Positions 1,632-62,269 are shown, numbered from the stretch's first letter. The stretch: 64,000 nucleotides of DNA from Moniliella sp. 'wahieum' (GCA_003971905.1 RSEE01000001.1:1488001-1552000), one strand, 5' to 3'. The notes: generated by a model not told the origin, from the letters alone. A program made the numbers and translations.

Positions 1632-2116
1632 TCCATAAGCACATTTGAGAATTTCTCGGCTGCTGCGTTCGACATGTGTTCAAGCAGCAGGCGGCAGTGT
1701 GGGCAGTACACAGTAGCGTGGATCATCGATCGGCAGGCACGGCACGGCGGGAGTCGGTGGGATTGTACATCACGCGTGGCACGTGATGTGTGTGATGCAC
1801 GGTCCCCTTTTATTCATTTTAGCCAAACTCTGGACAGAACAGCGCCCCCAACAGCGCTCTCCTCTCCAGGAAAAGCCGCTGGTTGAGCTCAGCTCAGCCG
1901 CCAGCTGAGCCGCTCCGTAACTCAGCGCGCTCAGTGCGTACTCACGACCTCCGTACTCCCCGTTTACCATTTCCTCAGTACACAGTCTCCGTATCTGTCG
2001 CAACGCGTGTGCCTTGCTATCTCTGCGGTGCTATCTGCCAGGCCATCTGCTCTGCTATAATCGTGTCTCATCACCGGTCACCGGTCACCGCCCCCCACAC
2101 TGTCCACCCACACCTC

Positions 2117-3570
2117 TCAGAACGGCCACAGGTCCAACGCGTTGACGCTGTCCTGGAGAAAGGCATGGGCCAGCGCATCGTCCTGCTGGCGCGCCATGCT
2201 CAGTGCCGCTCCACCGCCGAGTCGGATACAGTGGCACGGAACGACTTTTGGCTCGGCAGTTGTGTCGGTAACAATGGCAAGCTGATCGGAGGAGGCGGGT
2301 GGTGGTGTGCGCCGATGCTCAGGAGGCTTTAGTACAATTGGTGCCACCTGTGCCTCCAACAGCGTAGCATAGTATGTGTTCGAGCAAGGGCCAGGTTGCG
2401 CCGCTCCCTGACAAAACGGCTCGGTCGGGATGCGGCTAATTGAAGGTGGCGACAGAATTGGTAGGGCGATGCCTGCTGGTGCCTGCGGCCGTTGGGTCCC
2501 ACCCTTGATACTCCGGTCCCAGAGCGACGACATCAATTGCATCCGTCTTGGGTCTGAACCAAAGAAAGCCTCCCACCAATTACTTGTCCTTGGTCAGATT
2601 AGGCAAAAGCAAGGCCAGCCAACTAAGCATTCATGAAGGCAAAATATTGTGCTGGGCGAACCTGTGGCCTGTCCCGTGGAACGGCATCTTGCTCAACTTG
2701 GGACGGACCGGCTTGAAAACCAATCATCCAGAGCATCATCGTCCTCCAGTTCATTCCCATCCTCCGTAAACTTGCGCTTGCCCTCCTTGCTCTTCTTGAC
2801 TTGATTTAAGTGAGACTGCCACGCGTGTGTCAAGCTCTGTAATCAAGAATTGGTTCGAGTCTTCTTGTTTGTTGGGGACAGGCGTGAAGAGAAGAATGAG
2901 AAACTGGAGAGCGTGAGCACGAGGGCGCATTGGCAGCCTTCACTTCCCTGGAACACAACATGGGTTCCCTCCGGACGTATCTAGAGTCTCTCCACGTCAA
3001 ACAGTCCAAAAGGGCACAAGGAGGTGGAGGGTACGCATACGCCAGTTCCCTTAGCGTAGCAAAGCGCGCATCGTCATACTTGTCCAAAAGTTCGTTCGCA
3101 AAACACTTGCGAACGTCTTCCAACACGGGGGCCCCACAAGTGCCATAAAACTGCTTTCGATCGTGCTGTCGTCTGATTTGAAGCTGAGATGAGAGTAGGG
3201 TGCTGGTCCCAAGAAGAGAGTCGCGATTATCGATGAATCTGGATGCCTGCGTGCAGTCTTGAGCTGGCAGGCAATGCAGCCTTGTCATATGTCAGCCGCC
3301 TGGCCCATGTTGACCCACACGGCGTGAGCCGCAGGACGACATTGAGGATCCCAGCAAGTGTTGCTTGTGGTATTAGAGGGTAAGGCCAAGATGGGCAGAG
3401 CGGAGGTGGAGCTGTTTGTCGCCTGGTCCCACCGCCCTTGCCCTCCCTTGCACAAGCGCGTCTCACCAGTATGACGTTGGGCGACTCAGTGGGATGTGTA
3501 GTAGCACCCCACTTGCCCCACCTTTTTCAACCCTCATAACTCATTCCTTGGGCATCATCGATGGCCATGC
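2117..3570 (-). CDS. Possible hypothetical protein (fragmented)
   Basis: Consecutive protein-like minus-strand ORFs (2830-3288, 2117-2542); no family recognised; faint resemblance to the orphan family. Confidence 0.25.
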
Positions 3571-4011
3571 ATCATGCATCATGGCAGCAACGTTAGCGTT
3601 AGCGCGCGTTAGCAACAGTCGGTGCTCTGCTCGCGAGGCCTCTGCCTGGTCGACCTAATTGATCCTCCTGGCCCTTGATGCTAGCTTGATGATTCTCCTT
3701 CCAGTGCAAAAAATAGGCGGCGCACACTACATGGCGCAGTCGTGGGCCGGTATAGTGATATCAGAGGTAATAGGACGACCCTCCCAACCCCTCAGCAAAG
3801 GCTCCGACAGCTCAGACTTGCAGGCTCCCAGGCGGGAGGGGGGTGGGGCCAGAACCCAAAACACGCCGTAGGGGAAAAGGTGTACGTAACGTCCCCGCAT
3901 TTTGGCCCCCCAAGGTAGGTAATACGGTGGGAACAACCGAGTACTTGGAAGCCCGAATTGGCGTCCAGTACCCAGTACCCAGGGGTTTTGCTCGCCACCG
4001 CCACAACTGCC

Positions 4012-4722
4012 ATGTCCTCGTCCCCCATCCTTCCTCCCAATGCAAGCCGCCTGGCCCAAACCCAACAACTGAGTACGCTTCGTTCTCTGTTAAGCCCGGA
4101 AGGAGAAGAAGTACTAACCCCACTGCAGAGGCCTTGCTCACGATCATCCGGGACAAGACCACCTCCCGCGCCGACTTCATTTTCTACTCGGACCGTGTCA
4201 TCCGCCTCATTGTCGAGGAAGGTCTCAACCACCTTCCCACTCACAGCAAGAAAGTCACCACGCCCACAGCAGCGAGTACGATGGCCTCGAGTTTGAGGGG
4301 CACATTTGTGGGGTCCATCCTTCGGGTGGAGAGGCGATGGAGGCAGGCCTGCGCGAATGGTCGGTCGGTGCGGATTGGCAAGATCCTGATCCAACGCGAC
4401 GAGCAGACTGCCCAGCCGAAAACTGTTCTACGCTAAGCTTCCGCAGGACATTGCCAATCGCTGGGTCCTCCTGCTGGACCCCATGTTGGCCACGGGCGGT
4501 AGTGCCATCCAAGCGATGCAAGTGCTGGTGGACCATGGGGTGAACCCCGAACGCATTCTCTTTCTTAATGTGCTAGCAGCCCCAGAGGGCCTGGCGGCAG
4601 TGTACAAGCGCTTCCCCCAGATCAAGGTCATCTCGGCCTGGGTCGATGACGGGTTGGATGAAAAGAATTACATCCGCCCCGGCCTTTCCGACTTTGGCGA
4701 CCTGTACTACTCCGGCCGCTAA
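4012..4722 (+). CDS. FUR1: Uracil phosphoribosyltransferase
   Basis: LLTIIRDKTTSRADFIFYSDRVIRLIVEEGLNHLP, RIGKILIQRDE, LLDPMLATGGSA, YIRPGLSDFGDLY; intron 4073-4128 (GTACGC..CTAAC..CAG); indels. Confidence 0.95.
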
Positions 4723-5231
4723 CCCTCTGCTCCTCCTTTCTCGGCTTCCGAGTGCCATTCCCTACTAGCAACAATACCAATTTGAACCTACCCATCACGC
4801 CCCCACCGGGCCCAATATACAATGCAATCCCTTCCCACGAAAGGTACCAGAAGTTGCCCAGATGGGATCAGTTGGCCAGGGCAACCTATCTTTCGATCAC
4901 GCATGTAGTCTCGGGCCCAGTGGCGGGATGGTCCGCATCGTGAGCTCGAACTGGGCTTATTGTTCGTGCATGGCTACCTTCTTCTTCCAAGGGAAGCGGT
5001 CCACCATAGCTCCCTATAGTCATTGGCTTCCAGGTTCACATCCCAGTTCCAGTCCCACACTCTTCCCTCATCCCTCATCCCTCAGGCCTCATACCTGTCG
5101 TCTTACACCCGCCCACCACTTCTGCCCACGTGCGGCCCTTCTCGCCGTACCCAAACCCATCCTCGCGCTCATCCCCCCGCGTTGAACTGTTCTGGATACC
5201 ACTGAACTGCGCCAAGGAAAAGTACCCCCCT

Positions 5232-5265
5232 TCAAGCTTCAAGCTTCAAGCTTCAAGCTTCAAGC
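5232..5265. repeat. (TCAAGCT)4.9 heptamer array
   Basis: tcaagct x4 followed by tcaagc. Confidence 0.95.
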
Positions 5266-12689: not shown

Positions 12690-15020
12690 ATCGCCCGCCA
12701 CCGGCCACCGGCCACCAGCGGCCACCATGCACCATGCAATATGCACCCCCCCATTCCGCCCAGCAGTTCCTGGCGCCTCCAGCTGCAACTTTCAATTTTC
12801 GCCCCTAAACGTCTAAACGTTAAACCACGCTTGCAGCGCCCGCTTCTGCGCGCCGCGCACATTGCTCTACCACGCGCTGCGCGCCTCGCGCCCATTCCTG
12901 CCCATCGGCCACCCCCTTCCACCCGTTGTAGATGCCTCAGGCCTCACATCTCACATCCCACGCACTCAGACTCAGTACTCAGTGTTGAATAGGAACACTC
13001 GCCACTCGCTTCCAGCTTCACGCGGCACTACTAGTCATCAGTGCGTCAGCACGTCAGCGCGTCAGCGCTCGCCAAGCCACGAGCCCAGCCAACCCAAACA
13101 GATCGCCCAGTCTAATACTTGGTACTTGCCTCGGGCCTTACCTGTTGCCCGTCGCCTCAAATGGTAAACAGGTTGCTCTGGGCAACACCGGGCCACACTC
13201 CTATAACCTTTCCGCATACTCAGTACTCATTGGTCTACATACTCTGGTCGTTGAGTAACTGAGTACATATAACAAGCTTGAAGCTTGAAGCTAGGACCTT
13301 GTAACAGAATAGCCAAGTAATACATGTGCCTGACAACCGAGCACCCTTGTAATTGTCTGGCGTTTCTCTCCACCGGCCACCGGCCACCGACCCATGCGGC
13401 ATCCTCGGAATGGCACGGACCTATCACAAATGCATGCACGGTTCCCTCAGTACCCTACGAGAGTGGCAATAGCTTATTCCTACTATCAGCCACTCCATTT
13501 GCAACTACTATGACTGTTGGACGTTAGCTCTTGTCTTCTGGGTGTTGTCCACGGCCGACGTGCGGGATGTTTTAGCGCGTATAAGGCCTACGGCTTCTAA
13601 AAAAGATGACACCAATTTTCCCGGATGATATGTTCTTTTTTTTGACCGTGACCGGGACCCTACGCTGCTGCTTCATCTTTCCCCTCATGCACATGCACCT
13701 CATGCAGCATGCAGCATGTCCGTGATAGTATAGAGAGAGGGTATCACGCCTTCGGCAAAACCAGTCAAAGCCACATGGAATCGATTCCCATTGTAATCAT
13801 TCCTGTCCTGTGCGTCGGGGGTGCGGAAGGGTATGGCAAGAACCTATCGTACCTAGTATCTCACACACGTTTTCGAGAGGAAGTTCTGGGGCCGTGCGCT
13901 TGGAAGCGTTTGAAGCTTCGAAGTGGGAGACCGTAGATCCGAGAAAAGCTTGAAACGTGTTTTGCAGACTGCCAAGAACTGTGGGCTTTCCTGGGTCGCG
14001 GAGCTGAGCGACTGTAAACGCTAAGCGAGCGCTGACTGATCCCAGAGCTTGAGCCCACAAGGTCATTATAAGCCTGGAGAAAGCGCTCTCGCTCTGTGCG
14101 CTGAGGCTCAGCGCTAACGTACTTTCAGTAGACCCAGTGCTCGTACTCATGTACTTGATGTTCTGGTGCATCATGCGTCATGCATCATGCATCATGTATC
14201 ATGCACGCTGCGCTCAGCGCGCCCATCCCGGGTAATACGTACCGTGCTGAAACCGAGCAGCCAGACAATTTTTTGCCACCCGAACGCTCCGGCCTGCGCG
14301 CGAAGACAGCCCAGGCTTATTACGCACAGGGCCGACGCAGCCAGCCTCAGCCATCCCGCCACCGCTTTCCCACGGTGGGGTCTCTCCGAATACGGCATTG
14401 GATGTTGAGTACGTTGAGTACGTTGACCGTTGCACGTACGTTGAGTACTGAGTATGTGAGCGCGTGAGCGCTTGAGTAGTACATTGAGTTCCGAGGCAGT
14501 AACACTATATTCACTAGCTATTCACTAGTCACTAGTCACGCGTCACGCGTCATATTCATATGCGATGTGGTACGTCACGTGTATAGGTCCTTGAAGCTCT
14601 TGAAGCTTAAGCTGGATCTGTGTGGGTGGGTACTTGGTTGACACTTTGGGTGCAGTCAGTCGGTCACCGGTTAGTACTCAGTCTCAGATCACAGTGTACA
14701 CTCAGTACTCAGTACTCAGTCTGGGTTCTCATCGATTTCATGTGCTGCTGTGTATGTACAAAAGCAAGTACGTACGAGCTAATCCCCACACCAAGCTGTC
14801 GTCTGTCGCATGTCGCATGGCACATTTCACGTGGGTCGTCACTGGGTCAGTCGCCGGTCAGGCGGCCAGGCCGTCGTAAGTATCTGACTGATAGGAAGGA
14901 CCATCTTCAAGAGCTTCAAGCTTCAAGCTTCAAACTTGACACCCTCGAGCCCTCAGGGCCTCAGGGTCTCCCGGCATCGGAGCTTCAAGTGAGAAGCTGA
15001 AGCGTCAAGCTCTTCAAAAC
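12690..15020. repeat. Dense intergenic cluster of short palindrome-heptamer arrays
   Basis: ccaccgg, tcaggcc, tcagtac, tgaagct, tcatgca, tcactag, tcacgcg and tcaagct units in tandem, interspersed with unique DNA. Confidence 0.85.
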
Positions 15021-17950: not shown

Positions 17951-18259
17951 AGTAGTCACCGGTCACCCCACCAGAGTCAGTAGTCACCCGACCAGGCGGC
18001 GTCACCTGCCCATTTCAAAAGCTGCGTGCCCCAGGGGCTGGGGTCGAGGCACGGGGGCAGTGCGGCGCGCGCGCGCGACGCGGGCAGCGACACTGGCGGC
18101 GCGCACCGCGGGCGAGACAGGTCACGTGGGCGCCAGCAGCCGCAGCCCGCGCCGGCCGCTGGCCATCGCCTGGGCTCCAGCGGTGGGGCACGCCGAGCGC
18201 CGAGCTGGCCGGCGCCGACGCTGCTCCCAGCATCCACCCCGTCTGCCACGGCGATCGCC

Positions 18260-25756: not shown

Positions 25757-26832
25757 TCCCTTTGGCGAGTGGACTGCGTTGGAGGACCAGACAAGTCGGT
25801 GGGGAGTAGCCAACCTATTGAACAGTAATCTCTCCCTTCTCTTCTGCTTGCGGTTTTTGTGAGGGCGCCAGGGCCAGTGGCTTAGTGCGTGGGACCAGTC
25901 TTGATAGTGGATGCCATAGTTGACTCGGCCTGTTAGGAATGCACCCGCAATGGAGGTCAGTGAGGATGACTTCGACCGATAAGCCTATTACTGTTGGCCT
26001 CTTTGAATCGTTGTCCGGGCCGGAAGCTGATGGTGGATTGTTGCAACCAAAAAAACTCACTGTCTCTCCATGCCAACCCTAACCCTAAAGTATCACGTTG
26101 CTGCCGATTGAGACGGCATCGATTCCACGGTCTCGTCCCATGCGAGGAAGACACGCAGCCGAGAGCCTCGTCAGGCCTCAGGCGTCCTCTTTAGGCTCCA
26201 AGCCATGGCAGCCCACGGCATGGCCCGCCTGGCAAGGAGACGGGCTTTAAAATTTACCCCGGCTGCAGTTGGCCTGCGTCATGCATCATACATCACCTCT
26301 TGCCTCGTCATCCAGCACGGGGGCAGTATGGTCCATATATCATGGCGCAAGGTTTCTGGCATGATGGGCATCCCAGGCCCAGCTTGTTGCACAGTCCTTC
26401 CGGTGTTCTCCCTTTTCTGGAGGGATGGAATATTTTCTAAGCTCGTGTGTACAACCCAGCTATACCTGATCAAAACGCCTGTTGCTCTGCGGTTTCCACC
26501 CTCCAAGATAGCCGGGTGCCGACTGTGGGCCAGCCATTGAAGGAAAAACATATAATACGACGCCCTCCACAGGGGGATTATGCGACCCAGCAAAGCGTCG
26601 TTTGAAAGGAAACGGAAAACACCTTTACGCTGCCCTCCGTCGCGTTCTGGTCCACTCGTGTGGAATGAAAAAAACCTGTTCCAAAGATGCGCAGGCGAAC
26701 GGCTCTAATATATACGTTGCAGTGGGCGCAATATTGCGTCCATTCGCTTTTCACAGATCCCCAACCCCAAATCCCCTACCGTACCTTCGTTGGTTCTGTC
26801 GTGTTGCCTGAGGCGGCAACGTGACCAAAAGA

Positions 26833-28809: not shown

Positions 28810-29780
28810 GGGGGAGGGGTAGGAGGGTGGAGGGAGAGTAGTTTGTGTGGGTGTGGCGGAGGTCGAATGTGTTGCTCTTGCGGTGGATCGAGTATCAGAC
28901 TGCGTGTGGTGGTGCGTTGGAACGTTCAGCTGAGTGGCTGAAGCACACGAGCGGAGTGCTGAGTAGTGGCCCGTGCGGTGCGAGGCTGTGCGGTGCTGTG
29001 CGGAACGAAGCGAGGGCGAACGGCTGGCTGGCGCCGAGCGGGCATTGCATATTGAACGATCGACGCCACGTGGCATGCGGAATGTGAATGTGACACGGCC
29101 GCTCCCCCAGCACGCCCCCTGCGGCCAGTCGCAGCACCTCGGAATCGAGTGGCTCGGGCGGGCAGCGCAGCATCTGGCCAGTGTGCACAGCCCCTGTAGC
29201 CTCGGTGCGGAGAGCAGCAGACGATGCGCTCCAGCTGAAATGTTCAGCGGTGGGCTGGGTGACATGTGACAGTGACGTCAGCACACAGGCACGCACGCAG
29301 CGCTAGGAGTCGGCACTCGTTCAACGTGAGTGTACCCAGTCAGTTATACAGACGTACTCAGGACACCACTCCGTACTCTGTGGCCCTTCAAGCTTCGCTC
29401 GCTTCGCAGCTTCGACTCTGCCCATCTGCATCCCCCGCTCATCGCCGCCCAACCAAACGCGCATCCTGCGCTTCCACCATCGACCATCCCGCCCCCCTCC
29501 ACCGGCCCGCCTCGTACACATGACGCAATGTGCACTCCGGTCCACGGACGGGGACGCGTGGGGAGCGTCGTGGTCCGTGGCCTTGGGCGCATCACATGTC
29601 ACACACCTCCTGCCGCTCCGGCGCCCCCGTGCGCCCCCCTCTCTCCCCCTGCCCCTCCCCGGCCCCATTGTCGCGTTGTTCGCCCACAAAGCATGCCATA
29701 TTGAGAAGTACTTAATACCACCTACTGCGTCCCTATCCCCCTCCCCCCTCATCCCCACACGCACTAGACGAAGCACCAAC

Positions 29781-31423: not shown

Positions 31424-31978
31424 ATGCTAAATACTAAATCCGAATCGACGATGGCAGACGAACCGCAACGGCATCGTCTACAAGGCCTAACGATTAATGA
31501 CGTTCCAATCGTTTAACAGGTTGGTGAGGAGGATTGCAATATGCATAGATGTTGTAGCCTTCTCCAAAGCTCTGACCACTTGGGCTCGACGTGGTCCATT
31601 TGGACTCGCCAGGCCCACGGGGAGGAGTCCCAAGCTGCGACAGGGTGGGAATCAGGTAAAGCAGACTCCGGAGGGCGTACAAAGAGGGGCTAGGAGGGTT
31701 AACGGTTACCGGTTAAGGCCGGGGGGGGGGGGACTAGGGGGACAAGCCCCAGGACATTTAACGATCATTGATCAACCGAGATTGGGGGCACCAAAAGGAA
31801 CTAGCTTCCGTGGTTAGACGCACGGGGGGGGAATCAGAGGGTAAACCACATCCTGGTAACGGCAACACGGGCAACGGCAACGGGCAACGGGGAGAGATAG
31901 AGAGAGGGAGAGGGAGAAGACGAGGCGGGAGGCAGGTCGCGGGGGGAGATAGGCGGGTACGATAGGAATGTTATAAGC

Positions 31979-34900
31979 TCAAGGAGAGGACCAGAGTTGC
32001 ATCGCTCGGTTCATCTCCGACTGAGCGCGGGTGGGTTCCATGTTAGTCTCCTTTGCAGCAAAGGGATGATCGATGAGGAGCGGAGGAGCAGAGGAGCGCA
32101 AACGTACAATTTGTTGGGCATCGGGGAACTCGGTCTCGGAAGGTTGGAACTCATGAGGGGAGGGCAAGACGCTCGGGCCCGAGTGGAGCCGAGGGCAGGA
32201 GCGTCGTACGGCTCGAACGGTTCGTAACCAAGCTGGCCTTGGTCCAAGGTGGGATCAAATGGCGGGTCGTACAGCGCGCCATCGAACGCTTGGTACTCGG
32301 CACGGGGGGCACCCGTCCTCCCACATCCAACGATTGCGCGCGGTGCCCCACGCGCCGCACGTCCTGTGTCCATGAAGGCGGTGGCACTTCCCACCCTCGT
32401 GCAGGCGTGTCGCGGACATAGGAGAAACTGTGCGCGGCTTGGTGCCCGTTTCGACGCCAAAAGTCGGGCAGCGGCGCTCGCTCAAGGTAAGGCGAAGTAC
32501 GAAGTGCGAGAACAGGACCAGATACAGTGTGAGCGTGGCGGGCCTGGGCGCGGGCTTGGGCTTGGGCTTGGGCTTGGGCTTGGGCGTGGGCTTGAGCTTG
32601 AGCTTGAGCGTGAGCATGAGCGTGAGCTTGGGCAGTGTGGACTGTCTGGGCCGTTTGCGCTGCCTGCACCGCCGAGCCAGCTCCTGACGAGGTGCGCGAG
32701 CCGAGGATGGATGTGGTGTTAGCAGTCGAGCTAGCTGTGCGCACCCTCTGGCTCTCATCGAGATGGAGGGTAGGATGCGCCTCCGTGGCCGGCGAAGCCA
32801 AGGGCGGAGGTCCGCTCCGGACTCCCCTCCGGCTCCAGGTGGGCGAGTCGGGGAGGGGAAGCGCCGAAGCGGAAAGTGCCAGGCTCCGCGTAGCAGGGGA
32901 AGTGTGGTGGTACTGGTGGTAGGGGACGGAAGGGGGTAGCCGTAAGGCGGGGGGATACGGGCATGGCGAGAGCCAGCCCGGCAGCCGGGCTAGGCGCCTG
33001 GAACACATCGAACATGGCTCGTACTGTCGGTAGAAGAGGCGCGTGGGAACGGGTGGTAAACAGGTGCAGATGTAGGGACGCGTCCTCCCGGTCCTCGGGA
33101 TCGGGTAAGAACGAGAGACGAAGGTTGAACTCGCGTCGCAAAATATCCGTCAGGATCGTAAACTCATGCGAGGCGACATAGGTGCTAGGCGGAAGGATGT
33201 GTACGCCCTCGTATGGTACTTGCTCCAGCAAAGCTGCGCAGCCCCGGGTAATTGGAGAGCAGGACCATAGATTGTCACCTCATCCAATGCTGTCTCGCGC
33301 GGGGGGAAACGGACGGCACAGCTATTCCGGGTCTCGAGGTCGTGTAATAACATGGCGCGCTCCGAGGCCAGACTGCGATGGAACCAACGCGCAATAGGAA
33401 GAGTCGTGGTGGTGTAATCTCGGTCTTTGGGGGCAACCATCTCCAACACAGCAGCTTTCAGGTGCAACAAGGAAGCAGCATTCTTGCCCGGCGTGCGTGC
33501 TACGACATTGTCCTCGTTACTGAGGTAGCCGCCCAAGGAGGCAAACTCCTCGGCCGAAGAGAATTTGACGTACACCCCATACCGTTTCATGATACGCTGA
33601 ATGTTCTTGCCCCCCACACCAATGATCGCTTATGGTACGTCTCGGGTACATGGAAGGAAATCTCGGCGGGCAATTCTTCTTCCAAGCAAGCCAGTCCAAG
33701 AAGAACGTTGCTTCCCTCGCACGGGCCCTCCAACCCGGCCAACGAGGCGGCGGAAGCCATGGGCGGCGCAGTGAGCTCAAGGGGGGTTCCAAACGCACCC
33801 AACTCAATCACAAAATTGTATTCGTTGAACGTATCGTACTTGACCTGGACGTTGGCCAACTTCATAATCTTGTTGACCTTGCCATTCTTCTTGCCCGAGA
33901 TAAAGTCGCGGTGTTCCGCCGCAAGCTCAATATGGACGGTCACCTCGGCGCGGGGGTAGGTGCGCTGGATCAGCGGGTGAGAGAGAAGGTGAGCAAGACC
34001 CTTTCGAACTTCGGACGAAGTACCGCGCAGCTCGACTCGGCTGGCCGAGGGCGCCAGGGCCTCCCTGCCAGTCACCCCGCAGCGGCGCAGAGGGTAAAGT
34101 GCACCTCGGCACCCGATACGAGCGCCACATCCGTCACCAGCGTCGCCACCTCTTGTTTCCAGCGTGGCGCCCATATCCAGCAGCGCAACGCTGGCGAGAT
34201 AAAAGAGAGAAGCAAGTGCCATCAGGGCGCAGGGTGCGCTCCATGGACGTGCGATTGTCTCCCAGTACTTGGATGCGGCCCTGGGCGCTGCCCAAAGGAG
34301 GAAAAGAGATGCGGGTTCCATTGTCGATCGCGATGCACCTCAGCTCGTCCCTCTTGTGCAACAAGAGCCAGTCCAACTTGCACGGTAGCATTTCCGCTTC
34401 CTTGGAAAGCAAGGCAGCGCTCTTGAGCTGCGCAATCTGCAACAACATCTCCTTCGCCCGCGTCACCCCACTGGAGGGACCGGTGATGTAGACCAGGTGG
34501 GCTTCCTGCGCCAAGCGTGCATCCTCACTGGTATCGGGGGGCGGACCCAGCCAAAGGTAGTGGGCGCAAAGTAGATTGAGGTACCAGTGTCGGCCTGGAT
34601 AGTCTGGATCACACACCGTTTGCGCCCACCAAGGATGTTGAGCAAGGTGCAGTCCAGCTCGCACGTATCGGTTTCCAGCCCGTTCTGCCAGTCGATCGTA
34701 GCTGCGTTAGTCCATTTCCACCCGACAAGGGGAAGAAGTGTGGGAGGGAAGGGGGGCGGGGGTGGCGTACCAGTTGGTCGCACAGAACCAAAACGCGGAT
34801 GCAGGCCAGGGCCACCGCATCGGAGGAACCGCGGATGTCGATCTGGGCAAACGTTTCGTCCTCGGCCTGGGCCAAGGCAGCGACGGGGGTATCACACGCA

Positions 34901-35277: not shown

Positions 35278-36230
35278 CTGGGGGGTTGCCTGCTGCTCTG
35301 GGCGACGAGGATGCGCAGGGCCAGCAACAAGGAACCGGTCGCAGAAGCCAGCAGCCAGCAGTCAGCAACCAGGAAGCAACAACCACCAACCACAACCACT
35401 CGCCAAAAAGCAACCAGCAACCACCAGGCTCGTCTCGCGTCTCTCGCTCCCAGTCAGCACCCAGCAACCCAGCCGGTCTGTAGGATGGAGGCTGTGAAGC
35501 ACCGCCTCAGTCCCAGCTGCTGGGCGTCTCCCTCCGGCCACGTGACCCTGTGCGACCTTTTCACATCTCCATCTCAGACCACCGAGATCATCTCGATCAT
35601 CTCGATCCTCATCGAATCCGCACTGCCCTCCGGGGCATCCCCCCACGAATCGATGATGCAAGCAGCCGCTTCCTACTTACCGCATACTCAGTCACTAATA
35701 GTCACACCTGGTGGCAATGATTACTAGGCTGTCTTTTGCATCGTTTGGGGCATGTGCCATCCGAGACCTCAGAAGTCAGGCCTTGGGCCTTTTTGGGGTC
35801 GCGCTGCTGCTTCTTTTGTTCCCGACGAATCCAGCCTACACACCCAGCCTCGGGGGGCGCATTGAATATCGAACGAGAACGGACAGCCTGACCTTCAAGC
35901 TTCGACAGGCCCCGTCGGTCGAACCTGGGACCCACAACCGAGGACTGCGCAACAGGCCACCACAGGACGGAGTACACCGGCCCATTCACCCGAAGCTTGA
36001 ACGTTTTGAGCAAGAGCAGCCCTGGTGGCACTGCGAACTACAACGCACGGGCCACTGCGCGTTGTCCTCAGATTCCTAAGCCCTCTTTGAAACGGTAAAA
36101 TGCCCCCGCCGCCATCTCGGTGCGTAGGTAAGCGACTGGGGGGGCACCTATGCGCCCCCACCACCACACACAACACAAAGAGCGTGCTTTGCCAGCCCGC
36201 TCCAACAGCAGCCACTGCCCCTTTTCCCAG

Positions 36231-41726: not shown

Positions 41727-43331
41727 CTACCGTTTGAGATCGTCCGCCAGATTGTAGCTCACCGCCTGCGACTAAGCACGTACCTACACGTCAGTTGCAC
41801 ACATCGCCAAGGGAGGAGGAGCGCCACATACCCGGTTCCAGTCAACCTTCTGCTTGGTGACAGGCAGCTGCCGACGCAGAGCGCGGAACGTACGTTCCGA
41901 CAACTCGGTCAGCGTTGTCTCCAGTGCCGCATGGTACGCCTGCTCGTCCGCCTTGATCGCACGCACCACCTCGTTGGCTAAGGTTGTGTACGCCTCCCCT
42001 GCCGCCGAGCCAGCCAACACCGCCGCCAATCCACCTGCGTCGGCACGGTGAGCACGGGCGCATGCTCGGCAGACAGTTGGACATTTCCCTCCTCAAGTAA
42101 TGACATGCACTTGTACCGTACCCCGCACCGTTACCGACTTGATCTCCGTCCCCGCCTCCGCGGCCTCCGAGGCACTAGGCAGGGCCAGCACGTAGCTGGA
42201 GCGCCACCGCCCAGCCCAAAAGTTGACCAGGTTGTACCGGTTGCCAACCAAGTGCACGGTAAACGGGGTGCGCCAGAGGGGATGCGAGGTGCAGCTGGCG
42301 AAACGGGCTGCGCTTCGGCTTCGGCTTCCGCTTCGGTTTGAGCTTCCACTTGCTCCTCCGCCTTGCCTTCTCTCCTGGGCTCGGGAGGTCGCCAGGCTGA
42401 CCCCGCTCGATCGCCTCAATCTTGGCCTGTTGCTCAGCGCCTTCAGGGTCCAGGTGAGTCTGTTCCAATTCCTGGCTAGGAAAGTATCCTCTGCTCCTCC
42501 TGCGCCTTCTCCTGTGCTTCCTCTTGCGCCTCCCCTCCTCCTGCTCCTGGAACGACTCTGTTTCCAACTCCGCCTTGGGCGCTGCCAGCGTCGATCCGAC
42601 TCTCCAGCCGCATCAGCGTCCTCTGCCTCCGCGGATTGGGGAACCGGTACATGGCCCTCCTTCTCCGCTTGGACTTCAACTTCCGTTGCCCATCACGCAT
42701 CCGCCGCTGGCTCCGTCGGCAGCTCGGGCTCCGGTTTCTGCTCGGGCTCGACCGCGGCCTGGACAAAGGTGCAGGTGACGCCATCTTGGTAAAAGTGGCT
42801 CGTGTACTGGCTCGCGGCAGTATCGAGGGCCTGGCGTAACTGCTCGTACGCCTCGTTCACTACGATCGGCTGTGGATCTGACAAGCGCTGCAGGACATTC
42901 ACACACGCGCTTGAGTCAGTCCAGGACCTGGCACGTGCTGGGAGGGAGAGGGGGGGGAGGACCCAACGTCCAACGTACCAAGCGGAGAGGGTCAAACGCA
43001 TAGCTGGTCTGGGTGCGCGGGTCGGCAAAGCGTGCCGCCTCCTCCGTGTCGGCATCGGTGGTAGAGGGGGAGAGGATTCCAGCGGGGGAAATGATGAGCG
43101 GATGGGCTGGCGCGGCGCCCGGTTGGTCGGGGGGCTTGACAGTGATAAGTTGCTCGGTGTTGTACTGGCTCAGCACGGGCCAGGCTGCCGCGCGCAGCTG
43201 CTCCGACGCAGCGGGTACCGCGCTGCCCTCGAGCAACAGACGCAGGTCATGGTACACCTTGGCCACTTGCCCAGGCGGCGTCTGGCGCAGCAGCGCCCCA
43301 ACGCCGTCACTGACGAATCCAGGCTCTCCAT
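41727..43331 (-). CDS. CAP1: F-actin capping protein alpha subunit
   Basis: LRQTPPGQVAKVYHDLR, YNTEQL, GNRYNLVNFWAGRWRS, TFRALRRQLPVTKQKVDWNR-intron-AVSYNLADDLKR*. Confidence 0.93.
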
Positions 43332-44199
43332 CGGCACAGGCAGGCAGGGGGAGGCGGTGGTGGGGCGGCAGCAAGCTCCAGCGGCTCAGCTCGCCCGCGC
43401 AACGGTCCGTGCGGGCGGAAAGCACTACGCAGTGTCCCGCCTGTGCACCGGGCTCGGCGGCTAGGGTTGTGACACGTGACATCTGACCGTCGCACCTCCC
43501 ATCTGCCACGGGTGATGCATGATGCATGGCCGATGATCGATGGTCGATCAATTCGATCAATGGTCGAAGATCAACTGGATCCCCTACCCCCTCTCCTCCT
43601 TCGACCCGCCCTCCTCGTCTTCTAGGCCAGGCTGGCGGCGGCTAGTGGACGAGGAGGACAGGTGTAGTAGTTTACTTCTCTCCGTTTTTCTCTTGTACTT
43701 CGGGCGTCAGCCCATGTCTGGGTCAAATCCGGTACGTTCGTGATCATGATCTCTAGTTGGCTGTGCCATCGCACATCTCGCTTGCTCCGAAGGGTTCTCC
43801 AGTGGTCATGACCATAGCATCATCTTTCTCTCTTCTTCTGCCGCAGTAGTGGCAGCCGAAGCGAATCCCACCCTACCTGTTCTCTGCGTGTAGGTTACTT
43901 ACTACACGGCAATCCGATTTGGTGACCTCGCCGTCCTCATCGACCATCCTCCGTGTGAGCGAGAACTTACTGTGGCCCAGGCCGGGCCAGATACCCCGAT
44001 CCTACAACCCCCAAACAACCTTCTCTTACCCACCCCTAGTAGGCCAGGGAGTTATAAGATGAGCAAGAAGGAAGAAAGAAAGAAAGGGAAGCACAATACA
44101 TCACTGTGGCCAACTATTGTGTATTGTGTCGACTAGCGATTGGATCTCACCAAAGCCCAGGAGCTAAACAGAGGCAGAGACGTTACTGTTTTGCGCCAT

Positions 44200-46607: not shown

Positions 46608-49092
46608 GGAGGTGAGGGCAAATGTAGCGACGTGTGGAGTAGGAAGGTCAAAGGGGGGTGGCGAGGGGGTTTAAGAGTAAAGCAGAGGACGTCCGCAAGG
46701 ACTTGCCACGCAGAGGAAATGACAAAAACACGGCTGATTGGGCGGACATATGGGTCAGTAGTGACCAGTCTCTCGCTCGGGCTAGACAGGTTAGCTCGAG
46801 ACCCTGCAGCCCGAAACCCTGTGGCCCGTGATCGTGACCCTGTGGCCCGTTATCCTGCGGCCTGAAGGGCCTGAGGGGCCCCGCACCACAAGCTGGGTCG
46901 ACGTTCCGTGGGTATGGCCGTCGGCCATGTAAGATGACGGAAATCGCTGCCGAAACCACGGCGTCTCGGCACTGTTGGAAGTTAACGTTGAGCCGCGGGA
47001 TTGATATATGGCGGTTTGTGCCCAGCCAACCAGATATCGCACCCATCAGGCGCCCAGTGGTGCGTCCCGAATACTGAGCAAGCCGCGAGTGATGAGTCGA
47101 TGAAAAGCGAGCGGGGAGCGCTGAGCGTCAGCAACTAGTACCATTGGTGAGAAGCGAGCGCCAAGTCGCTCAGCGGCTCCGCGGCGCGCTGTGTTCGCTG
47201 GTGCTTGCTTGCGTGAGGCCAGGGCAGGCAGACTGCTGCTCACACGCACGGGGGCCCAGAACAATGTGAATGGCATGTCCGTGCCAGCCATGGTTTGGCG
47301 TGTCGATTAGTGTATTCACTATTGGAAGGAGGCTGGCTGTGGCTGGGCAGGTGGGCGGCAGGCGGCAGGCAAGGCGGACATGCCATATGAATATGACATG
47401 TGACATGTGATATACGTGACACTGGCTGCGACATCACATGTCCCATGTGATCGACGTGATCGATCATGATCGGCGTGACGCGTGATCGTGATCCCAGCCA
47501 TCATGCAGCACACCGCACCAGCCGACTCTCCCGCACATGGCCGCGGCGATGCGGCGAGACCTGCGGGCGTCCTAGAAAGACCCTACGGGACAAGCCCACC
47601 GGATCCGCTCTACCCGCAATTCCCCGAAAAGGAACCCCCGGAAAAACGCGCGTGAATCCCGAGCACCAGAGAAGCTCGCGTTGTCAGAGAGGCGTAGTGC
47701 TGCCCTCCAGGGTGGGGGAGATAGAGATGCCAGATGCCAGATGCTCCACGCACGCGTTCTGCTGTTCCGTTCAACTGTTCCATCTGTTCTGTCCATCTGT
47801 TACACTATTCCATCTGTTACATCTATTCCATTTCTTTGTAGAAGACCAGAGAGCATTGCGGGCACAGTTGACATGATGGTGTATTTGGCATTGCACATGA
47901 GCTACAGAGGCTATATCCAGAGAATATTCCTGCCCTCCAGGAAGGAATATTGGAAGGAATGCACGGAACGGGGGACCACGTTTGGGGTACCGGTACCACT
48001 ACACCCCACGGCGCACCCCCCCAATGTGTAGCATCTCTAGCATCTTTAGCATCTCTAGCATCTCTAGCGCATTATCTTCACCATCTCTTAAGAGTGTATT
48101 GCGAAATGGCATGTGGAACCACTCAGTTGGCATGGTTGTACCAGCCAAGTCGCTGGTAACCGGTAAGCGCTAGCGCTAAGCGCCAAAAGTCCAATAAGCG
48201 CTAAGCGCTAAGTCAAGAGCCGCGTTCTGCGACCCGAGCCTACCGAATCCAGCCAGACAGCGGGCGCCTCTCCCCCCTTCTCCTTTTCTCTCCTCTGGCA
48301 CGTAAGATTGGATTATTAGCGCTTAGCCGGCCTGACATCAGAACTTATATAAAAGCTTCTCTCACTTTGCTCATTCTCTTGTACACATTTTGAGTGCACA
48401 GGTCTCCAGCCCCATTTTGGAAGCTCGTAGCTATACGGGGGGTTAAACCTTAAACGTCTTAAACGCTAAACCTTAACGTTCTCGACGATCCCGACCGCTC
48501 TCAGTGACCCGGTGACGGCCTCCTCGCCCTCACCGGTCACCTTCGATCGCACCCCTCGCCCATGGCCTCATTCTTACACACACCACCGACCAGGATGCAT
48601 GGGAGCTTATGCGCTTATGGAGGTCAAGCTTCAAGGGGTGCATCGAGCATCCGATCTGATCTCAGAACTCTCCAGCATCCACCATCCATCCGTCCATCCG
48701 TCATCATGCATCATGCATCATCAACGCAACGTCGACCGTCCAATTCAGAATCAACAAAGGTTAGGCGGGGATATCTAAGGGGTAAGAATCGGTACTCGGA
48801 TCCGAACGCCAAAAGGCAGAGCAATGCGTATCATGTGTCACTATTACCGCGCGTGTGGGCAGCCGGGGTGCCGTCTCGGCCAAACCCGCTCTTGGCTCTT
48901 ATCGATTATCGGTCTTATCTTACCCATCACAATCCACTCTTGCAACGAAGCGCACGAGGCCCAAACCGGGTCCAGCATGATTGTGTAAGCCACGTTTGGA
49001 GTGCGCCTGGGGGAGACCAAGGTCAGTATCAGTACTCAGTACTCAGTACAGGGCAGAGGGCAGACTTGGCAGCAATAACCAATAACTAGTCC

Positions 49093-54356: not shown

Positions 54357-54838
54357 CTCTTGCTGGCCCAGGACGTATGGAAGAGGGGGGGAACAAGCGA
54401 CAGGTGTGTCAGTGGTAGCATGAGGCAGACCGCTGCTGTTTTCTACACGTAAATCACGTCACCCTCAAGCGCATTGGACGGAGGCGCGGCGAAATCGAAT
54501 TCAATTGCAATACTGGCACACCACGTCTCCGCAACATGTGTTGCTCTCCTTTCCTTTGCACTATTCCCTTCCTCTCACCGATCATCGCCCTCGACTGACC
54601 ATTGCGCCCCCCTTGCCCAGCATGACCGAGTAGGAGACTTGACGAAACAGTTTTTGTTTCATCAGGACCGCCACCGCGCCATTCCTACGGTCCAGGCCTC
54701 TGTGGCGCCAACCTCTTCAGAAAGGAACCAAAAGCCGAGACGACGCGGCCGGAACCCCCTGTTGTGCAACTTTCAAAACAGAATGGGGCTCGGCCGTGAC
54801 GCGTGACGCGTGAGGCTCGCTGGGGTCCGGAACCAACC

Positions 54839-55783: not shown

Positions 55784-56199
55784 GGTGTTGTCTTTGCCCT
55801 CTCGTAAGGACTTGTGTTCGGCAAGAGCATCCCCATTCGGTATGGGATCGTAGTCGGTTGCACGTCCTTGTTATGCCCGCATCTTTCGATGCATTCAAAA
55901 ATGGATATGTTCCAGCTCCATGCCCGTATGCGCCGTCGTCGCGCCATCACCATTGGCGCGCGTAAGATGTAACATGTAACATCCCTCATAGCTGCTTGTG
56001 GAAGTAGCTTTTTGAATGTTCTGCGCACGATGACCGCGGGAGGGAACGCTTTTGGTAGCACGTGGGTGGTCCCTTGACCAGGTGTGTCACATGTCAATGA
56101 TCAATACAGCAGCCACGGGTGACATGCCGAGACAGACAACCTTTTATATAGTACGAGGAAGTGCTATCGGATGATATTCATAGTCCCTTCGCAGCCTCT

Positions 56200-57280: not shown

Positions 57281-57547
57281 TGTGAAGAGTTATAAAAGAC
57301 TGAGAGAAAGAGAGGGAAGATGGCGGTGCTATTCAAGGAGAGGATGAGGCCATTATTAGGGGAAGATCGTATAGGGAGTGTGGTAGACAGCTAGAGCGAT
57401 AGGAGACAAGGGGGCCCAATGTGCCAGGGTCGCTATGCATGATGCATGACTAATGGTTGCTACAAATTCAGGGATCGATTCCCCAATCGACTCGAGCCAT
57501 CATTTTCCTGATCATTTCCCAACTGTAGTATACTTCGGCGTCTTCTT

Positions 57548-57900: not shown

Positions 57901-58623
57901 CTATCAAGAAACCTTATAGGCGTTACCAAGAAACTATAATGCCACCAAAAACTTGCTATCAAGAAGGCCAAAAAAGGTATAAGTTGAGGGGATATTGGTT
58001 CGTGGCAAAAGCAAAGGCAAAGCAAAAAGGCATGTTATTGGACCCAGGCTCATCATCCGCACCAGTACGTCCCCATGACTAATAGCGTCATCGGACGTGC
58101 ATTGAAGACCAGGGCCGGGGAGAGGAGGAGAGCCCGGGAGAAGCCAACATCGCTATACATACAAAGGTCAAATTAGCGCCAGGAGCTTATACGAAGCTAT
58201 TATATCTCTGACTGTGTTTCCTCTCCACCTTGCCCAGTATAAAAACAATCTTCCGTAGCGTAACGCGTAAAGCGTACCACGTTGAGTTTGACCTTGATAT
58301 GTATGGAAGCCCAGTCCTGTGTATCCTCTCGGTTAAACGCGTTCGACGTTAAACCGAAACGTTAACGCGTAACGCGAAACCATGTGCTCTCACCTGTATT
58401 AGGGTTATCCGTGTGATCTCCTTGGGCCTCGGCCTCAGGGCCTCAGGTCCCTCAGGGATCGTCCTGCAAGCTGCAAGTGCATGCCTTGCGCGGATTATTA
58501 GCCCGATTCGTTCACAAACGCTTGCCGAGCGAGTGTGGTGGTGCATGGTGTGCATGGTGCAGCGCGTCTCCTCTTCCTATAGCCTGCAGATTCTTTTGGC
58601 GGATGTTCTTCGGTGCGTGCATG

Positions 58624-58874: not shown

Positions 58875-59485
58875 TCCCCCGGAAGGGGAGCGCTCTTCAA
58901 GCAAGCCCACCCCCAAGCCTACAAGCCCAAGCTAAGCCGCCTGCCAATTCATCCGGGGCACCTGGGGAAAGGATGGGGGGGGTGGTCACCCAACTTCTTC
59001 CACTCCTCTTTTTCAACAACAAAGAGAACCCAAACAGATCAAGACGGTTGACGCATAGCGCCCGTTCATTTCCCATGCCCAATGGACCCCACTGGCACCA
59101 GGCATGCGGAACCAAACAACTACCAAACGCATCCAATTTTGATGCCAAACGACCTTGGACCGCATTTACTCCAAGTTTCCAATTTTCTTTCACTACACTA
59201 TAACTGGTGCTTTTACTTTTGCCCACCAAATCGCTTCGGGGCGCAACCCCTACTACTTTTACTTCTAAGACTTCTACAAGCATCTGGCGGTCGCACAATA
59301 CACCAACCACAAGCGCTCGGCTCGTTCAGGTGTCATCCTGGACAGCGGGGGTGTAGGCCAGTCGTGTGGCCATGCACAACTCCAGGCCATTCGTCCCGGT
59401 TGCCACTCAAGTCCTCCCCTCTCTACATCCACTGGCAGGAGCTCATCCCACAACCGATGTCTCCGGGTTCCCTGGCCAGCGGGGG

Positions 59486-59738
59486 TGTTGACTGTGATCC
59501 TCTGGCTCCCAGTCGGTAGACCAGGTCGCCTCGGTTCCATCGGCTTCCACGCTGACGTCCCTGCGTGTCACTGTCCCTGTGCCCTGCACTCTCTCCTGTG
59601 TGACTCACTGTCCCTGTGCCTAGTCCAGCCTCCTATATAGATGCCTCTGTACCCAGACCCAACTCTGGCTCCAATCCATCACCTTCTCCTCATCCTTCTG
59701 CCCGTCCGGCTCCCTAGGCCAACAGAGCTACAATCTGA
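59486..59738 (+). repeat. LTR-like repeat 2 (shared)
   Basis: Near-identical to repeat 1. Confidence 0.9.
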
Positions 59739-59845
59739 TCCCCCGGAAGGGGAGCGCTCTTCAAGCAAGCCCACCCCCAAGCCTACAAGCCCAAGCTAAG
59801 CCGCCAAGCCCACAAGACACACCCGTCCTCCCGCCCAACAACACC

Positions 59846-59921
59846 ACCGCCACAATCGGCACCTTACCGCCACAATCGGCATACTACCGCCACAATCGGC
59901 ATACTACCGCCACAATCGGCA
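59846..59921. repeat. 20-bp minisatellite x4 inside the long internal region
   Basis: accgccacaatcggca core at 59846, 59866, 59886, 59906. Confidence 0.95.
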
Positions 59922-60635
59922 CACTCGTCCCCCACAGATGGGGCAATGATTTTAGGGACAACACACGACGGAACAAAACGTGTCGGGTATCGTCAACGAG
60001 ACGAAATTCCTCCAACGACAAAACGGCGCAGGCGAATCGCAGAAAGCGGGGGTGGCTGCTCATCAAGTGCCCCCCCACGGCTACACGCCCCGGATTGCCA
60101 ATTCATCCGGGGCACCTGGGGAAAGGATGGGGGGGGGTGGTCACCCAACTTCTTCCACTCCTCTTTTTCAACAACAAAGAGAACCCAAACAGATCAAGAC
60201 GGTTGACGCATAGCGCCCGTTCATTTCCCATGCCCAATGGACCCCCTGGCACCAGGCATGCGGAACCAAACAACTACCAAACGCATCCAATTTTGATGCC
60301 AAACGACCTTGGACCGCATTACTCCCAAGTTTCCAATTTTCTTCACTACACCTATAACTGGTGCTTTTTACTTTTGCCCACCAAATCGCTTCGGGGCGCA
60401 ACCCCTACTACTTTACTTCTAAGACTTCTACAAGCATCTGGCGGTCGCACAATACACCAACCACAAGCGCTCGGCTCGTTCAGGGTCATCCTGGACAGCG
60501 GGGGGTAGGCCAGTCGTGTGGCCATGCACAACTCCAGGCCATTCGTCCCGGTTGCCACTCAAGTCCCCCTCTCTACATCCACTGGCAGGAGCTCATCCCA
60601 CAACCGATGTCTCCGGGTTCCCTGGCCAGCGGGGG

Positions 60636-60886
60636 TGTTGACTGTGATCCTCTGGCTCCCAGTCGGTAGACCAGGTTCGCCTCGGTTCCATCGGCTCCAC
60701 GCTGACGTCCCTGCGTGTCACGGTCCCTGTGCCCTGCACTCTCTCCTGTGTGACTCACTGTCCCTGTGCCTAGTCCAGCCTCCTATATAGATGCCTCTGT
60801 ACCCAGACCCAACTCTGGCTCCAATCCATCACCTTCTCCTCATCCTTCTGCCCTCCGGTCCCTAGGCCAACAGAGTTACAATCTGA
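60636..60886 (+). repeat. LTR-like repeat 3
   Basis: Near-identical to repeats 1 and 2; followed by catg. Confidence 0.9.
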
Positions 60887-62269
60887 CATGGTTTTAAGAG
60901 AAGTGACAGCATGTGAGTACGGCATGTGACATGTGATACGGGACAGTCACGTGCGCCATCAAGGGATCCCACGTTCTACGACCCAGCGGAGCCAGGCGCA
61001 TCAAATATGCAAGGGACTAACAACGCCCAGGGCACTGCTCGTGTCGTGTCCATCACCGGCATCGCCTCGGACTCACCCGGGGGGAGGAGGCCGGAGGCTT
61101 GAGGGACAGTTCAGGCGCTCAGGCGCTCAGGCGAAACCCCGAGGGGACGGACAGCCGCAAGGAGATGGGCGGCTGACGTAATGGGACCGGCACCAGGCCA
61201 GCCTAAGACTTTGGCAAGCCGTGGGCGCCAGGACGGCGGCGCAGAGGCACGGGGCCGCAGGGGGGCCGGCAGGGCAGTACACAGCACGGCTGGCACGGCG
61301 CAGCAGCTGCTGGGCTTGGCGCCAAGCCCAGCAGCCAATGCCACAGCTGCCCAATCACATGCACGCCCAGCCCACCCTTCCCGCCGCCAGTCGTCCACCC
61401 TTGCCAGCGCCCTGGGTGCGGTCGCCGCTCCCACCCCCGCCCCCACCACCACCCTCTCCGCTCGCTGCTCCCTGTCCCCCCGCGCGCCCCCGCCCGGCCT
61501 CCTCGGTCCTCCTTGCGCCCATGCCCCGCCGCGCGTCTCTTCGGCCATCTGCGGCCGCAGCCATCGCCGCCTTCCTCGTCGCCCTCGCCCCCCCCCAGCC
61601 CCAAGGACCTGCATCGCTCCTCGTCCCCCTCCTCCCCCCCGACAAGCGCACCAGCTTTTGTGGGGCAGCAGTACCAGCGACCGCGCTAAGCCTCGTCTGG
61701 CGCCTACCACCAGCGCATCAAGGCCTCGATGACCTACGTTGCCCCGCTCCCCTTTGGCCGCCCACGTGCTCGGTACCGACGAGGGCAGCAAGGCCCTGTC
61801 CTCCTCTCACTCGGCCAAGGCCAACTCTTCCCGCTCCCGTTCCAAGACGCGCCGCTCCAACTCTCCCAAGAGCGCCTCGGGCCGCCCCGCCCCCACCTCG
61901 TCCGAGGTGCCCGCCAACCCCTTTTCTCTCAATTGGCCTAGGCCTTGCTTGCCTCGACGCTCCCCTCGTCTTCTTCTTCCCCTGTCCCCACCCACCACCC
62001 TTCCCAAGGCAGGACACGTCCCCACATCTCCTCAGCCCGGTCCAGCACCTCGTTCAAGCCATCTCCGCTTGAAACGAGACAACCTTGGCGCTTCTCAGAT
62101 CTCAACCGGCGCGCTTGTCTCGTGCTTGACTCGTGACCGGTGTCCCCCACCGACCATTCGCTTGGCCTTTGGAAGATCCCCCTCTGCAGCGCACACCTTT
62201 CCTTACTTACCCAGCTATTCTCTTACCCACCCTCTGTACACTATATTCGAGCCACGTACTCTTTCATCA

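Follow-up and report, generated by a model that had tools for sequence, protein, structure and literature searches.

Our analysis of a 64,000-nucleotide (nt) stretch of the genome of Moniliella sp. 'wahieum' (GCA_003971905.1 RSEE01000001.1:1488001-1552000), hereafter the window, confirmed a heptamer grammar that is real and far above chance: short tandem arrays in which a trinucleotide anchor of the form TNA is followed by a 4-bp palindrome. The grammar has the appearance of a scar left again and again by a process of DNA breakage and repair. We read the arrays as mutational scars and not as binding sites, made by a lineage-specific insertion that passes through a hairpin or strand-switch intermediate and then lengthened by re-use or slippage, and we give this reading a probability of roughly 0.35. 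All results come from this window and from a set of control loci in other genomes.

Pairs of TCA/TGA anchors spaced by 4 nt number 74 in the window, and in 45 of them (61%) the spacer is palindromic; 50 dinucleotide-preserving shuffles gave a mean of 28.7 such pairs, 1.8 of them palindromic (maximum 6). Because the 29 non-palindromic pairs match the number expected by chance, the entire excess of TCA/TGA pairs is palindromic. Palindromic spacers also separate 10 of 25 TAA/TTA pairs and 12 of 84 CCA/TGG pairs, and make up 0–11% in the other 29 strand-collapsed trinucleotide classes at the same spacing; the excess is linked to TNA anchors and, less often, to CCA. It is strictly direct in orientation, with a palindromic spacer in one of nine TGA-N4-TCA and none of seven TCA-N4-TGA arrangements, cases that would form perfect 10-bp palindromes. 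Among perfect period-7 arrays of at least 2.3 copies, 15 of 21 hold a 6-bp palindrome in their cyclic unit, compared with 0 of 33 period-6 arrays in the same window; at a threshold of at least 2.0 copies the figure is 23 of 53, against 11.1% for random heptamers of window composition. Isolated 7-mers of TCA plus palindrome are scarcely enriched (133 versus 113 ± 11), and it is therefore the duplication event, not the word, that is special. An earlier reading made from the sequence alone (the sequence-only reading) had proposed the rule of TCA or TAA plus a 4-bp palindrome; this rule is borne out within the window, and every array it cited is present as described.

Merging the hits gave 50 loci, 35 of one unit (between two anchors), 14 of two units and one of four. 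They are given below with their strand, followed by the period-8 and period-9 variants.

2071..2090 (+) TCA-CCGG array, two full units plus TCA
3566..3583 (+) CCA/TCA-TGCA array, upstream side of the UPRTase gene
3965..3982 (+) CCA-GTAC array
5080..5091 (+) TCA-GGCC 12-mer, an insert within a non-palindromic TCATCCC array
5230..5265 (+) TCA-AGCT array, the longest (5.1 copies), flanked by two convergent genes
12697..12716 (+) CCA-CCGG array
12723..12738 (+) CCA-TGCA locus
12814..12825 (+) TAA-ACGT 12-mer
12934..12946 (+) TCA-GGCC locus
12970..12983 (+) TCA-GTAC locus, two full ACTCAGT units
13217..13229 (+) TCA-GTAC locus
13274..13292 (-) TCA-AGCT array (the plus strand shows TGA)
13370..13389 (+) CCA-CCGG array
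14178..14196 (+) TCA-TGCA array, decayed units on both sides
14442..14454 (-) TCA-GTAC locus
14522..14539 (+) TCA-CTAG array, adjoining the TCA-CGCG array at 14535
14535..14552 (+) TCA-CGCG array, then TCATATTCATATG
14700..14720 (+) TCA-GTAC array, three full ACTCAGT units
14912..14933 (+) TCA-AGCT array
17955..17967 (+) TCA-CCGG locus
26171..26183 (+) TCA-GGCC locus
26279..26289 (+) TCA-TGCA locus, 11 nt
29259..29271 (-) TCA-CATG locus
29476..29488 (+) CCA-TCGA locus
29592..29603 (+) TCA-CATG 12-mer
31703..31715 (-) TAA-CCGG locus
32065..32076 (-) TCA-TCGA 12-mer
33846..33855 (-) CCA-ACGT 10-mer, possibly a chance match
42963..42976 (+) CCA-ACGT locus, in the second (N-terminal) Pfam-matched CapZ-alpha open reading frame, outside the matched stretch (probably intron)
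43513..43528 (-) CCA/TCA-TGCA array, upstream side of the CapZ-alpha gene; 19-mer in common with 3563
47394..47410 (-) TCA-CATG array, then TCATATTCATATG
47473..47485 (-) TCA-CGCG locus
48107..48116 (-) CCA-CATG 10-mer, possibly a chance match
48155..48166 (+) TAA-CCGG 12-mer
48195..48212 (+) TAA-GCGC array
48316..48327 (-) TAA-GCGC 12-mer
48530..48541 (+) TCA-CCGG 12-mer
48624..48635 (+) TCA-AGCT 12-mer
48702..48721 (+) TCA-TGCA array
48899..48911 (-) TAA-TCGA locus
49029..49049 (+) TCA-GTAC array, 3.0 copies
54795..54813 (-) TCA-CGCG array, about 230 bp upstream of the L7Ae-family gene
55967..55982 (+) TAA-CATG locus
56085..56096 (+) TCA-CATG 12-mer
57435..57449 (-) TCA-TGCA locus
58258..58270 (+) TAA-CGCG locus
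58363..58376 (+) TAA-CGCG locus
58539..58550 (-) CCA-TGCA 12-mer
60923..60936 (-) TCA-CATG locus
62093..62104 (+) TCA-GATC 12-mer
13038..13068 (+) period-8 variant TCAG-CGCG (TCA, 3 nt, then the inverted dinucleotide)
14456..14471 (-) period-8 variant, plus strand reading GTGAGCGC
14951..14966 (+) period-8 variant TCAG-GGCC
58431..58447 (+) period-8 variant TCAG-GGCC
61111..61133 (+) period-8 variant TCAG-GCGC, 2.9 copies
14404..14426 (+) period-9 variant TGAGTAC+GT
35586..35607 (+) period-9 variant TCATCTC+GA

The single-unit loci reveal how far the duplication extends. A perfectly periodic run of at least 12 nt is present in 32 of the 35, so that the repeat comprises at least five bases and not three; the runs measure 10 nt in two loci (both CCA, possibly chance), 11 in one, 12 in 11, 13 in 11, 14 in four and more in six. 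If each flanking base matches one time in four, a 3-bp duplication would by chance extend to 12 nt in only about 16% of cases. A true 7-bp duplication, for its part, needs 14 nt, and most single-unit runs are 12–13 nt long; they are not decayed 14-mers, since the base past the first mismatch continues the unit in only one of seven runs read by eye (five 12-nt single-unit loci and two 2-unit arrays), which is the chance level. Runs start at the T of an anchor or at a palindrome centre and end at the A of an anchor or at a palindrome centre, and array ends concentrate at these two sub-unit phases.

The pentamer T-S-A-N1-N2 recurs at a 2-nt spacing 74 times, against a mean of 3.5 in 30 shuffles; at spacings of 0, 1, 3, 4, 5 and 6 nt the counts are 7, 28, 17, 28, 4 and 9, those at 1 and 4 nt possibly including period-6 and period-9 repeats of coding low-complexity runs. 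The 2-nt spacer reverse-complements the last two nucleotides of the pentamer (N1N2) in 59 of the 74, and the first two in seven. Inverted spacers accompany TCA in 31 of 37 cases, TGA in 28 of 37, CCA in 8 of 17, TTA in 6 of 9, TAA in 5 of 10 and TGG in 5 of 13, and the other 58 anchor trinucleotides in 48 of 839, as expected by chance. Since the inverted dinucleotide also heads 7 of 17 3-nt spacers and 13 of 28 4-nt spacers, the period-8 (TCAG plus palindrome) and period-9 variants are accounted for. The smallest unit is a 12-mer, and the event takes TNA-N1N2 to TNA-N1N2 / N2'N1' / TNA-N1N2, a structure that rules out both a simple TNA duplication with a transposon-end remnant and a plain 7-base duplication. 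Twelve different 4-bp palindromes are in about equal use across the loci, the first half of each equalling the flank. As the sequence shows, the process, specific to this lineage, adds seven bases at TNA (mostly TCA/TGA, on either strand) and thereby gives a palindrome without a central spacer. At 5080, a 7-nt unit of the TNA-plus-palindrome form lies within a non-palindromic TCATCCC array, as an insertion would look. The sequence-only reading had equated the TCA and TAA units with a 6-bp palindrome, ANNNNT, plus one base, and that description, which follows from the 12-mer event when the anchor is TNA, is accurate for TNA anchors; CCA arrays, however, retain the 4-bp palindrome without ANNNNT, which is therefore a by-product and not the rule itself.

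For arrays of at least two units the predicted fold is a 5-bp stem capped by a TNA triloop (-1.5 to -7.5 kcal/mol, z -0.5 to -4.1), whereas a single 14-mer has no predicted fold, and at 12944 a decayed unit (CATC) has itself been duplicated. Slippage therefore also acts; it contributes to array growth but cannot make the first unit. Could the arrays as a whole nonetheless be chance seeds extended by ordinary microsatellite slippage, or an artefact of the assembly? Their shortness and perfection would suit such an origin, as would the slippage that demonstrably acts on them, but the unit sequence is tightly restricted to TNA or CCA plus palindrome, some 50 loci stand against about two palindromic pairs expected, isolated seeds are not enriched, and the ends fall at two phases rather than at random. 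Moreover, arrays of 12–36 nt are shorter than any read, and we know of no sequencing error that makes such a pattern. We consider this origin very improbable, in agreement with the sequence-only reading, which had held that independent slippage would not converge on the rule.

The control set comprised 80 metagenome loci around DUF2408 homologues (608,309 bp), mostly from other fungi. There, the spacer was palindromic in 31 of 378 TSA-N4-TSA pairs (8%), inverted in 10 of 74 occurrences of the pentamer structure, and a 6-bp palindrome was present in 5 of 66 period-7 arrays; per kb, the grammar is about 14-fold lower than in the window. The closest control locus (80% protein identity) spans only 3.5 kb and is uninformative on the grammar. 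Given this background level, the grammar is peculiar to this genome or to a narrow lineage. The literature searched, whose coverage excluded subscription journals, yielded no account of heptamer arrays built on TNA plus a palindrome, and none of six repeat terms occurs in the genome preprint of the smut Thecaphora frezzii. The TCACGAT-type repeats of Ustilago to which the sequence-only reading had likened the arrays could not be traced in that literature.

How might a 12-mer of this kind arise? If a covalently closed DNA hairpin were opened by a nick 2 nt from its tip, a loop-free inverted dinucleotide (P nucleotides) would remain beside a short direct duplication. The nearest source may be the empty-site footprint of a cut-and-paste transposon that makes flank hairpins, of the RAG/Transib, CACTA-like or hAT kind, and the 12-mer would then represent a 5-bp (less often 6–7-bp) duplication plus two P nucleotides. 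The scar would recreate its target, so that repeat hits, or slippage aided by the small hairpins of arrays with at least two units, could build the arrays, while frameshifting would keep scars out of coding DNA. A target duplication is indeed kept at the scar, as this reading needs (74 pentamer repeats versus 3.5 in shuffles), and the reverse complement of the flank end, the hallmark of P nucleotides, lies directly adjacent in 59 of 74. For Candida albicans, PMC5873905 describes 28 types of Ac/Ds footprint among 128 events, two of them predominant, which consist of target duplications accompanied by short deletions or by P-nucleotide palindromes. Target duplications of 5 bp are given for Transib, and likewise for RAG, in PMC1131882, and PMC12730594 lists fungal hAT families whose duplications measure 5, 6 or 7 bp and CACTA/Transib-clade families in which they measure 2–5 bp. 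Hairpins of the hAT type alone, which are odd-centred, were set aside as a source: reasoning from PMC5873905, they would not yield an even 4-bp palindrome.

Several points weigh against a hairpin-type insertion scar. The scar is one-sided: of 74 cases, 59 have the inverted dinucleotide on the far side from TNA and seven have it next to TNA, and the anchor stands at one end only of the duplicated pentamer. Symmetric targets are usual for transposase dimers, and so are P nucleotides at either flank. One form dominates, whereas known footprints vary, and 5 of 14 two-unit arrays lack an extra half-palindrome. About 50 loci in 64 kb would require a very active element, and we infer the 'before' state, a single TNA-NN, by parsimony. 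No Pfam transposase was found among 255 window open reading frames (ORFs) of at least 110 amino acids at E ≤ 1e-5. Inverted termini longer than 12 nt with equal flanking trinucleotides are absent from the window, where the 52 trinucleotide-flanked pairs measure 9–12 nt, a size expected by chance, and two of them are flanked by TGA or TTA; inverted ends with a 5-bp flanking repeat were likewise not found there beyond one chance-level 11/12 pair that does not start with TNA. To these points must be added two pairs of loci with more common flank than chance allows, described below.

A transposon-free error of replication or repair synthesis, a strand switch in repair or on the lagging strand, is nearly as likely as the footprint, which still leaves it a tentative proposal. 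Here the polymerase, having copied through TNA-NN, would turn onto the displaced or sister strand for 2–3 bases, again yielding a loop-free palindrome, then realign on the T of TNA and recopy TNA-NN, and hairpin-assisted slippage would grow the arrays. The polar, one-sided event (59 versus 7) is what a fork or nick would produce, no transposon was found in the window, and the T...A complementarity of the anchor would supply a 1-nt realignment; the small hairpins of arrays with at least two units and the duplicated decayed unit at 12944 fit as well. Yet the self-complementary anchors CNG, GNC and ANT have palindromic spacers in only 0–6% of pairs, so base pairing alone does not explain TNA. Canonical-orientation TCA and TGA are equally common (31 and 28), which speaks against a strand-specific lesion at C; the inverted tract stays 2 nt even with 3–4 bases after TNA; and the predicted class with a non-T first and a T second anchor is not commoner than its mirror (13 versus 10). 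A general polymerase property is also insufficient, given that the other sampled fungi lie at background. Two further candidates were dropped: a deaminase or abasic-site nick at the C of TCA, in view of the equal use of TCA and TGA in canonical orientation, and hairpin stability as the cause of the TNA choice, in view of the unused CNG and GNC anchors.

The three hypotheses of the sequence-only reading were a fold-back or template-switch process, footprints of a PIF/Harbinger-type transposon, and sites for a protein reading spaced TCA/TGA half-sites. A mutational origin, whether by template switch or as a footprint, fits best; the PIF/Harbinger version is contradicted, and the half-sites are unlikely. 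In a PIF/Harbinger footprint, a 3-bp TNA duplication would lie on either side of 2+2 bases from the element's inverted ends. The direct repeat of a TNA trinucleotide is in keeping with this, and two inverted ends would leave a 4-bp palindrome, as is established for Tc1-type footprints, but in 32 of 35 single-unit loci the repeat takes in 2 bases of flank and spans at least five, and the twelve palindromes would require at least 12 end types where one element's ends should supply few. Nor was any such element, matching ends or transposase found in the 64-kb window. These results contradict a PIF/Harbinger footprint, to which we attach only a very small probability.

The loci keep out of coding DNA and are concentrated in a small number of spacers between genes. 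Pfam-matched stretches served as gene annotation, codon-score and period-3 gene maps being too weak. None of the 50 loci falls within the 6,259 bp of Pfam domain matches (4.9 expected, Poisson P = 0.0075) and three fall within the 16,995 bp of Pfam-carrying ORFs (13.3 expected), all three outside the matched part; the earlier impression, gained by eye, that the arrays lie outside coding sequences was thus correct. Most lie upstream of genes; others lie where the 3' ends of two genes converge (5230) or in a probable intron (42963). At about 0.8 loci per kb (some 50 in 64 kb), the loci are unevenly spread: 10 of 40 TNA loci lie in 12–16 kb and 8 of 40 in 48–50 kb, the spacers at 12.6–15.0 kb and 47.3–49.1 kb are hot spots, and in 2-kb bins the dispersion index is 2.6.

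Two pairs of loci share flanks. An identical 19-mer, GGCCATGCATCATGCATCA, occurs at 3563-3581 (+) upstream of the UPRTase gene and at 43513-43531 (-) upstream of the CapZ-alpha gene. The two sites have similar flanks (ATCGAT and TGGCAG), and the 19-mer may be a common promoter block; further copies of this block are at chance level only (4 versus 1.5 expected). The exact 13-mer TCATATTCATATG is found at 14550-14562 (+) and 47384-47396 (-), after two copies of TCA-CGCG and two of TCA-CATG, respectively, a coincidence for which 0.47 matches at up to 2 mismatches are expected. The two regions show no alignment beyond a block of about 35 nt, and the preceding arrays carry paired differences at both central palindrome bases, in both units. 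The common flanks hint that small composite blocks may be dispersed or functional, or that the process may be more deterministic than modelled. In addition, a 17-bp odd palindrome, GCGCTGAGGCTCAGCGC, at 14098-14114 and 39288-39304 has TGA and TCA inverted, an arrangement otherwise rare.

Might the arrays be functional cis-elements, with one or more proteins reading either the TCA/TGA half-sites 7 bp apart or the palindromes in promoters? Most loci lie in gene-upstream spacers, two promoters have the 19-mer and similar flanks in common, and the same 13-mer follows two arrays. Nevertheless, the about equal use of twelve palindromes means that the constraint is being a palindrome and not a particular sequence, and spaced half-sites would not explain why any palindrome suffices; only TNA is constant among the sites, which have no common core sequence. 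The position of some arrays, between genes that converge at their 3' ends (5230) or probably within an intron (42963), the fixed sub-unit phases at array ends, and the failure of the regions around the common blocks to align also argue against regulatory sites, and we regard this explanation as unlikely.

The DUF2408 protein encoded at 51613-53652 has its best matches in Ustilaginomycotina, at 62–85% identity over the conserved part (Ustilago, Ceraceosorus, Testicularia, Pseudozyma, Tilletia and Malassezia), with no near-identical entry, which points to a smut-related fungus as the source of the window. Pfam placed 13 genes: UPRTase, 14-3-3, M16 peptidase, CAP-Gly repeat protein, PLP decarboxylase, KH protein, ubiquitin-conjugating enzyme, GMC oxidoreductase, CapZ-alpha, Frag1, DUF2408, L7Ae-family protein and 3-hydroxyacyl-CoA dehydrogenase. 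Period-3 GC periodicity is clear in only about one-third of the window, many stretches of 2–5 kb have neither periodicity nor Pfam matches, and for a smut-type genome the gene density seems low. Within ORFs of the M16 peptidase gene (minus strand), the hexamer GAAGAG is repeated about 36 times (11215-11422); if translated, this run would give an acidic or serine-rich low-complexity insert. The long ORF region at 21200-25600, rich in 6-, 12-, 18-, 63- and 117-bp repeats (GAGCCA-type units) and with a weak CAP-Gly match at its end, probably encodes a repeat-rich cytoskeleton-associated protein.

Larger repeats are also present. A dispersed repeat of about 350 bp has inverted copies at 44731-45095 (+) and 57500-57870 (-), 12.5 kb apart and about 80–85% alike by eye; the first copy contains an internal 61-bp tandem duplication (45010-45133), and no inverted ends were seen. 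Near-identical repeats at 58623-60870 are ordered A-B-A-C-B-A (A about 320, B about 540, C about 290 bp), resembling tandem units of terminal repeat, internal region and terminal repeat. Paralogous copies at 58.6–61.0 kb differ by 1–2-nt indels only, and no 7-nt event was found among them.

What is the significance of such arrays? As a mutational signature, they would allow the origin of tandem repeats to be followed one base at a time, which is seldom possible, would tag by sequence a hairpin-making enzyme or a mobile element that has left no other trace in the window, and would steadily supply promoter variation to a group of plant-associated fungi. We further speculate, with considerable reserve, that the lineage possesses an undescribed DNA-writing activity that recognises TNA and inserts a self-templated 7-base unit (inverted dinucleotide + TNA + 2), the putative agent being a nuclease or transposase that forms hairpins, whether free-living or domesticated, or else an unusual reaction of a repair polymerase; de novo microsatellite-like arrays and continued promoter remodelling genome-wide would be part of it. 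There is a real chance that the agent itself is new. Extrapolated from 50 loci per 64 kb to an assumed genome of a few tens of Mb, such an activity would have produced tens of thousands of sites. If instead the arrays are conserved, they would form an odd class of promoter elements specified by symmetry and not by sequence.

Among known systems, the tandem duplications mediated by flaps or microhomology (rad27-type) are short and bounded by 3–5-nt direct repeats, and in hairpin-prone microsatellites self-pairing units expand; the window arrays resemble both in their short, repeat-bounded duplications and in the expansion of self-pairing units. To our knowledge, however, these systems follow no unit-sequence rule, have no inverted dinucleotide at the junction and are not lineage-specific. 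The anchor, TNA with a free central base, recalls the TNA duplications of PIF/Harbinger and IS5-type elements, but the repeat in the window is five bases and not three, and it is the flank, rather than the ends of an element, that templates the palindrome. Transib and RAG provide a 5-bp duplication and, with a hairpin at the exact border, an even-centred palindrome would be expected, as follows from PMC1131882; unlike the scars in the window, reported Transib targets are symmetric and GC-rich (CASTG, CAWTG). Soybean rust is the sole fungus with Transib in that 2005 paper, and no Transib-like ends or transposase were found in the window. With hairpin-type footprints more broadly (Ac/Ds, other hAT, Transib/RAG, MULE), as portrayed in PMC5873905 and PMC5499845, the arrays have in common a retained short direct duplication, a spacerless inverted copy of the adjacent flank bases, few predominant outcomes and a setting in fungal non-coding DNA. 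They differ in that no element was found in the window, the duplication is TNA-anchored at one end only, the inverted tract is nearly always 2 nt on a single side, and the scars are stacked, at about 0.8 loci per kb.

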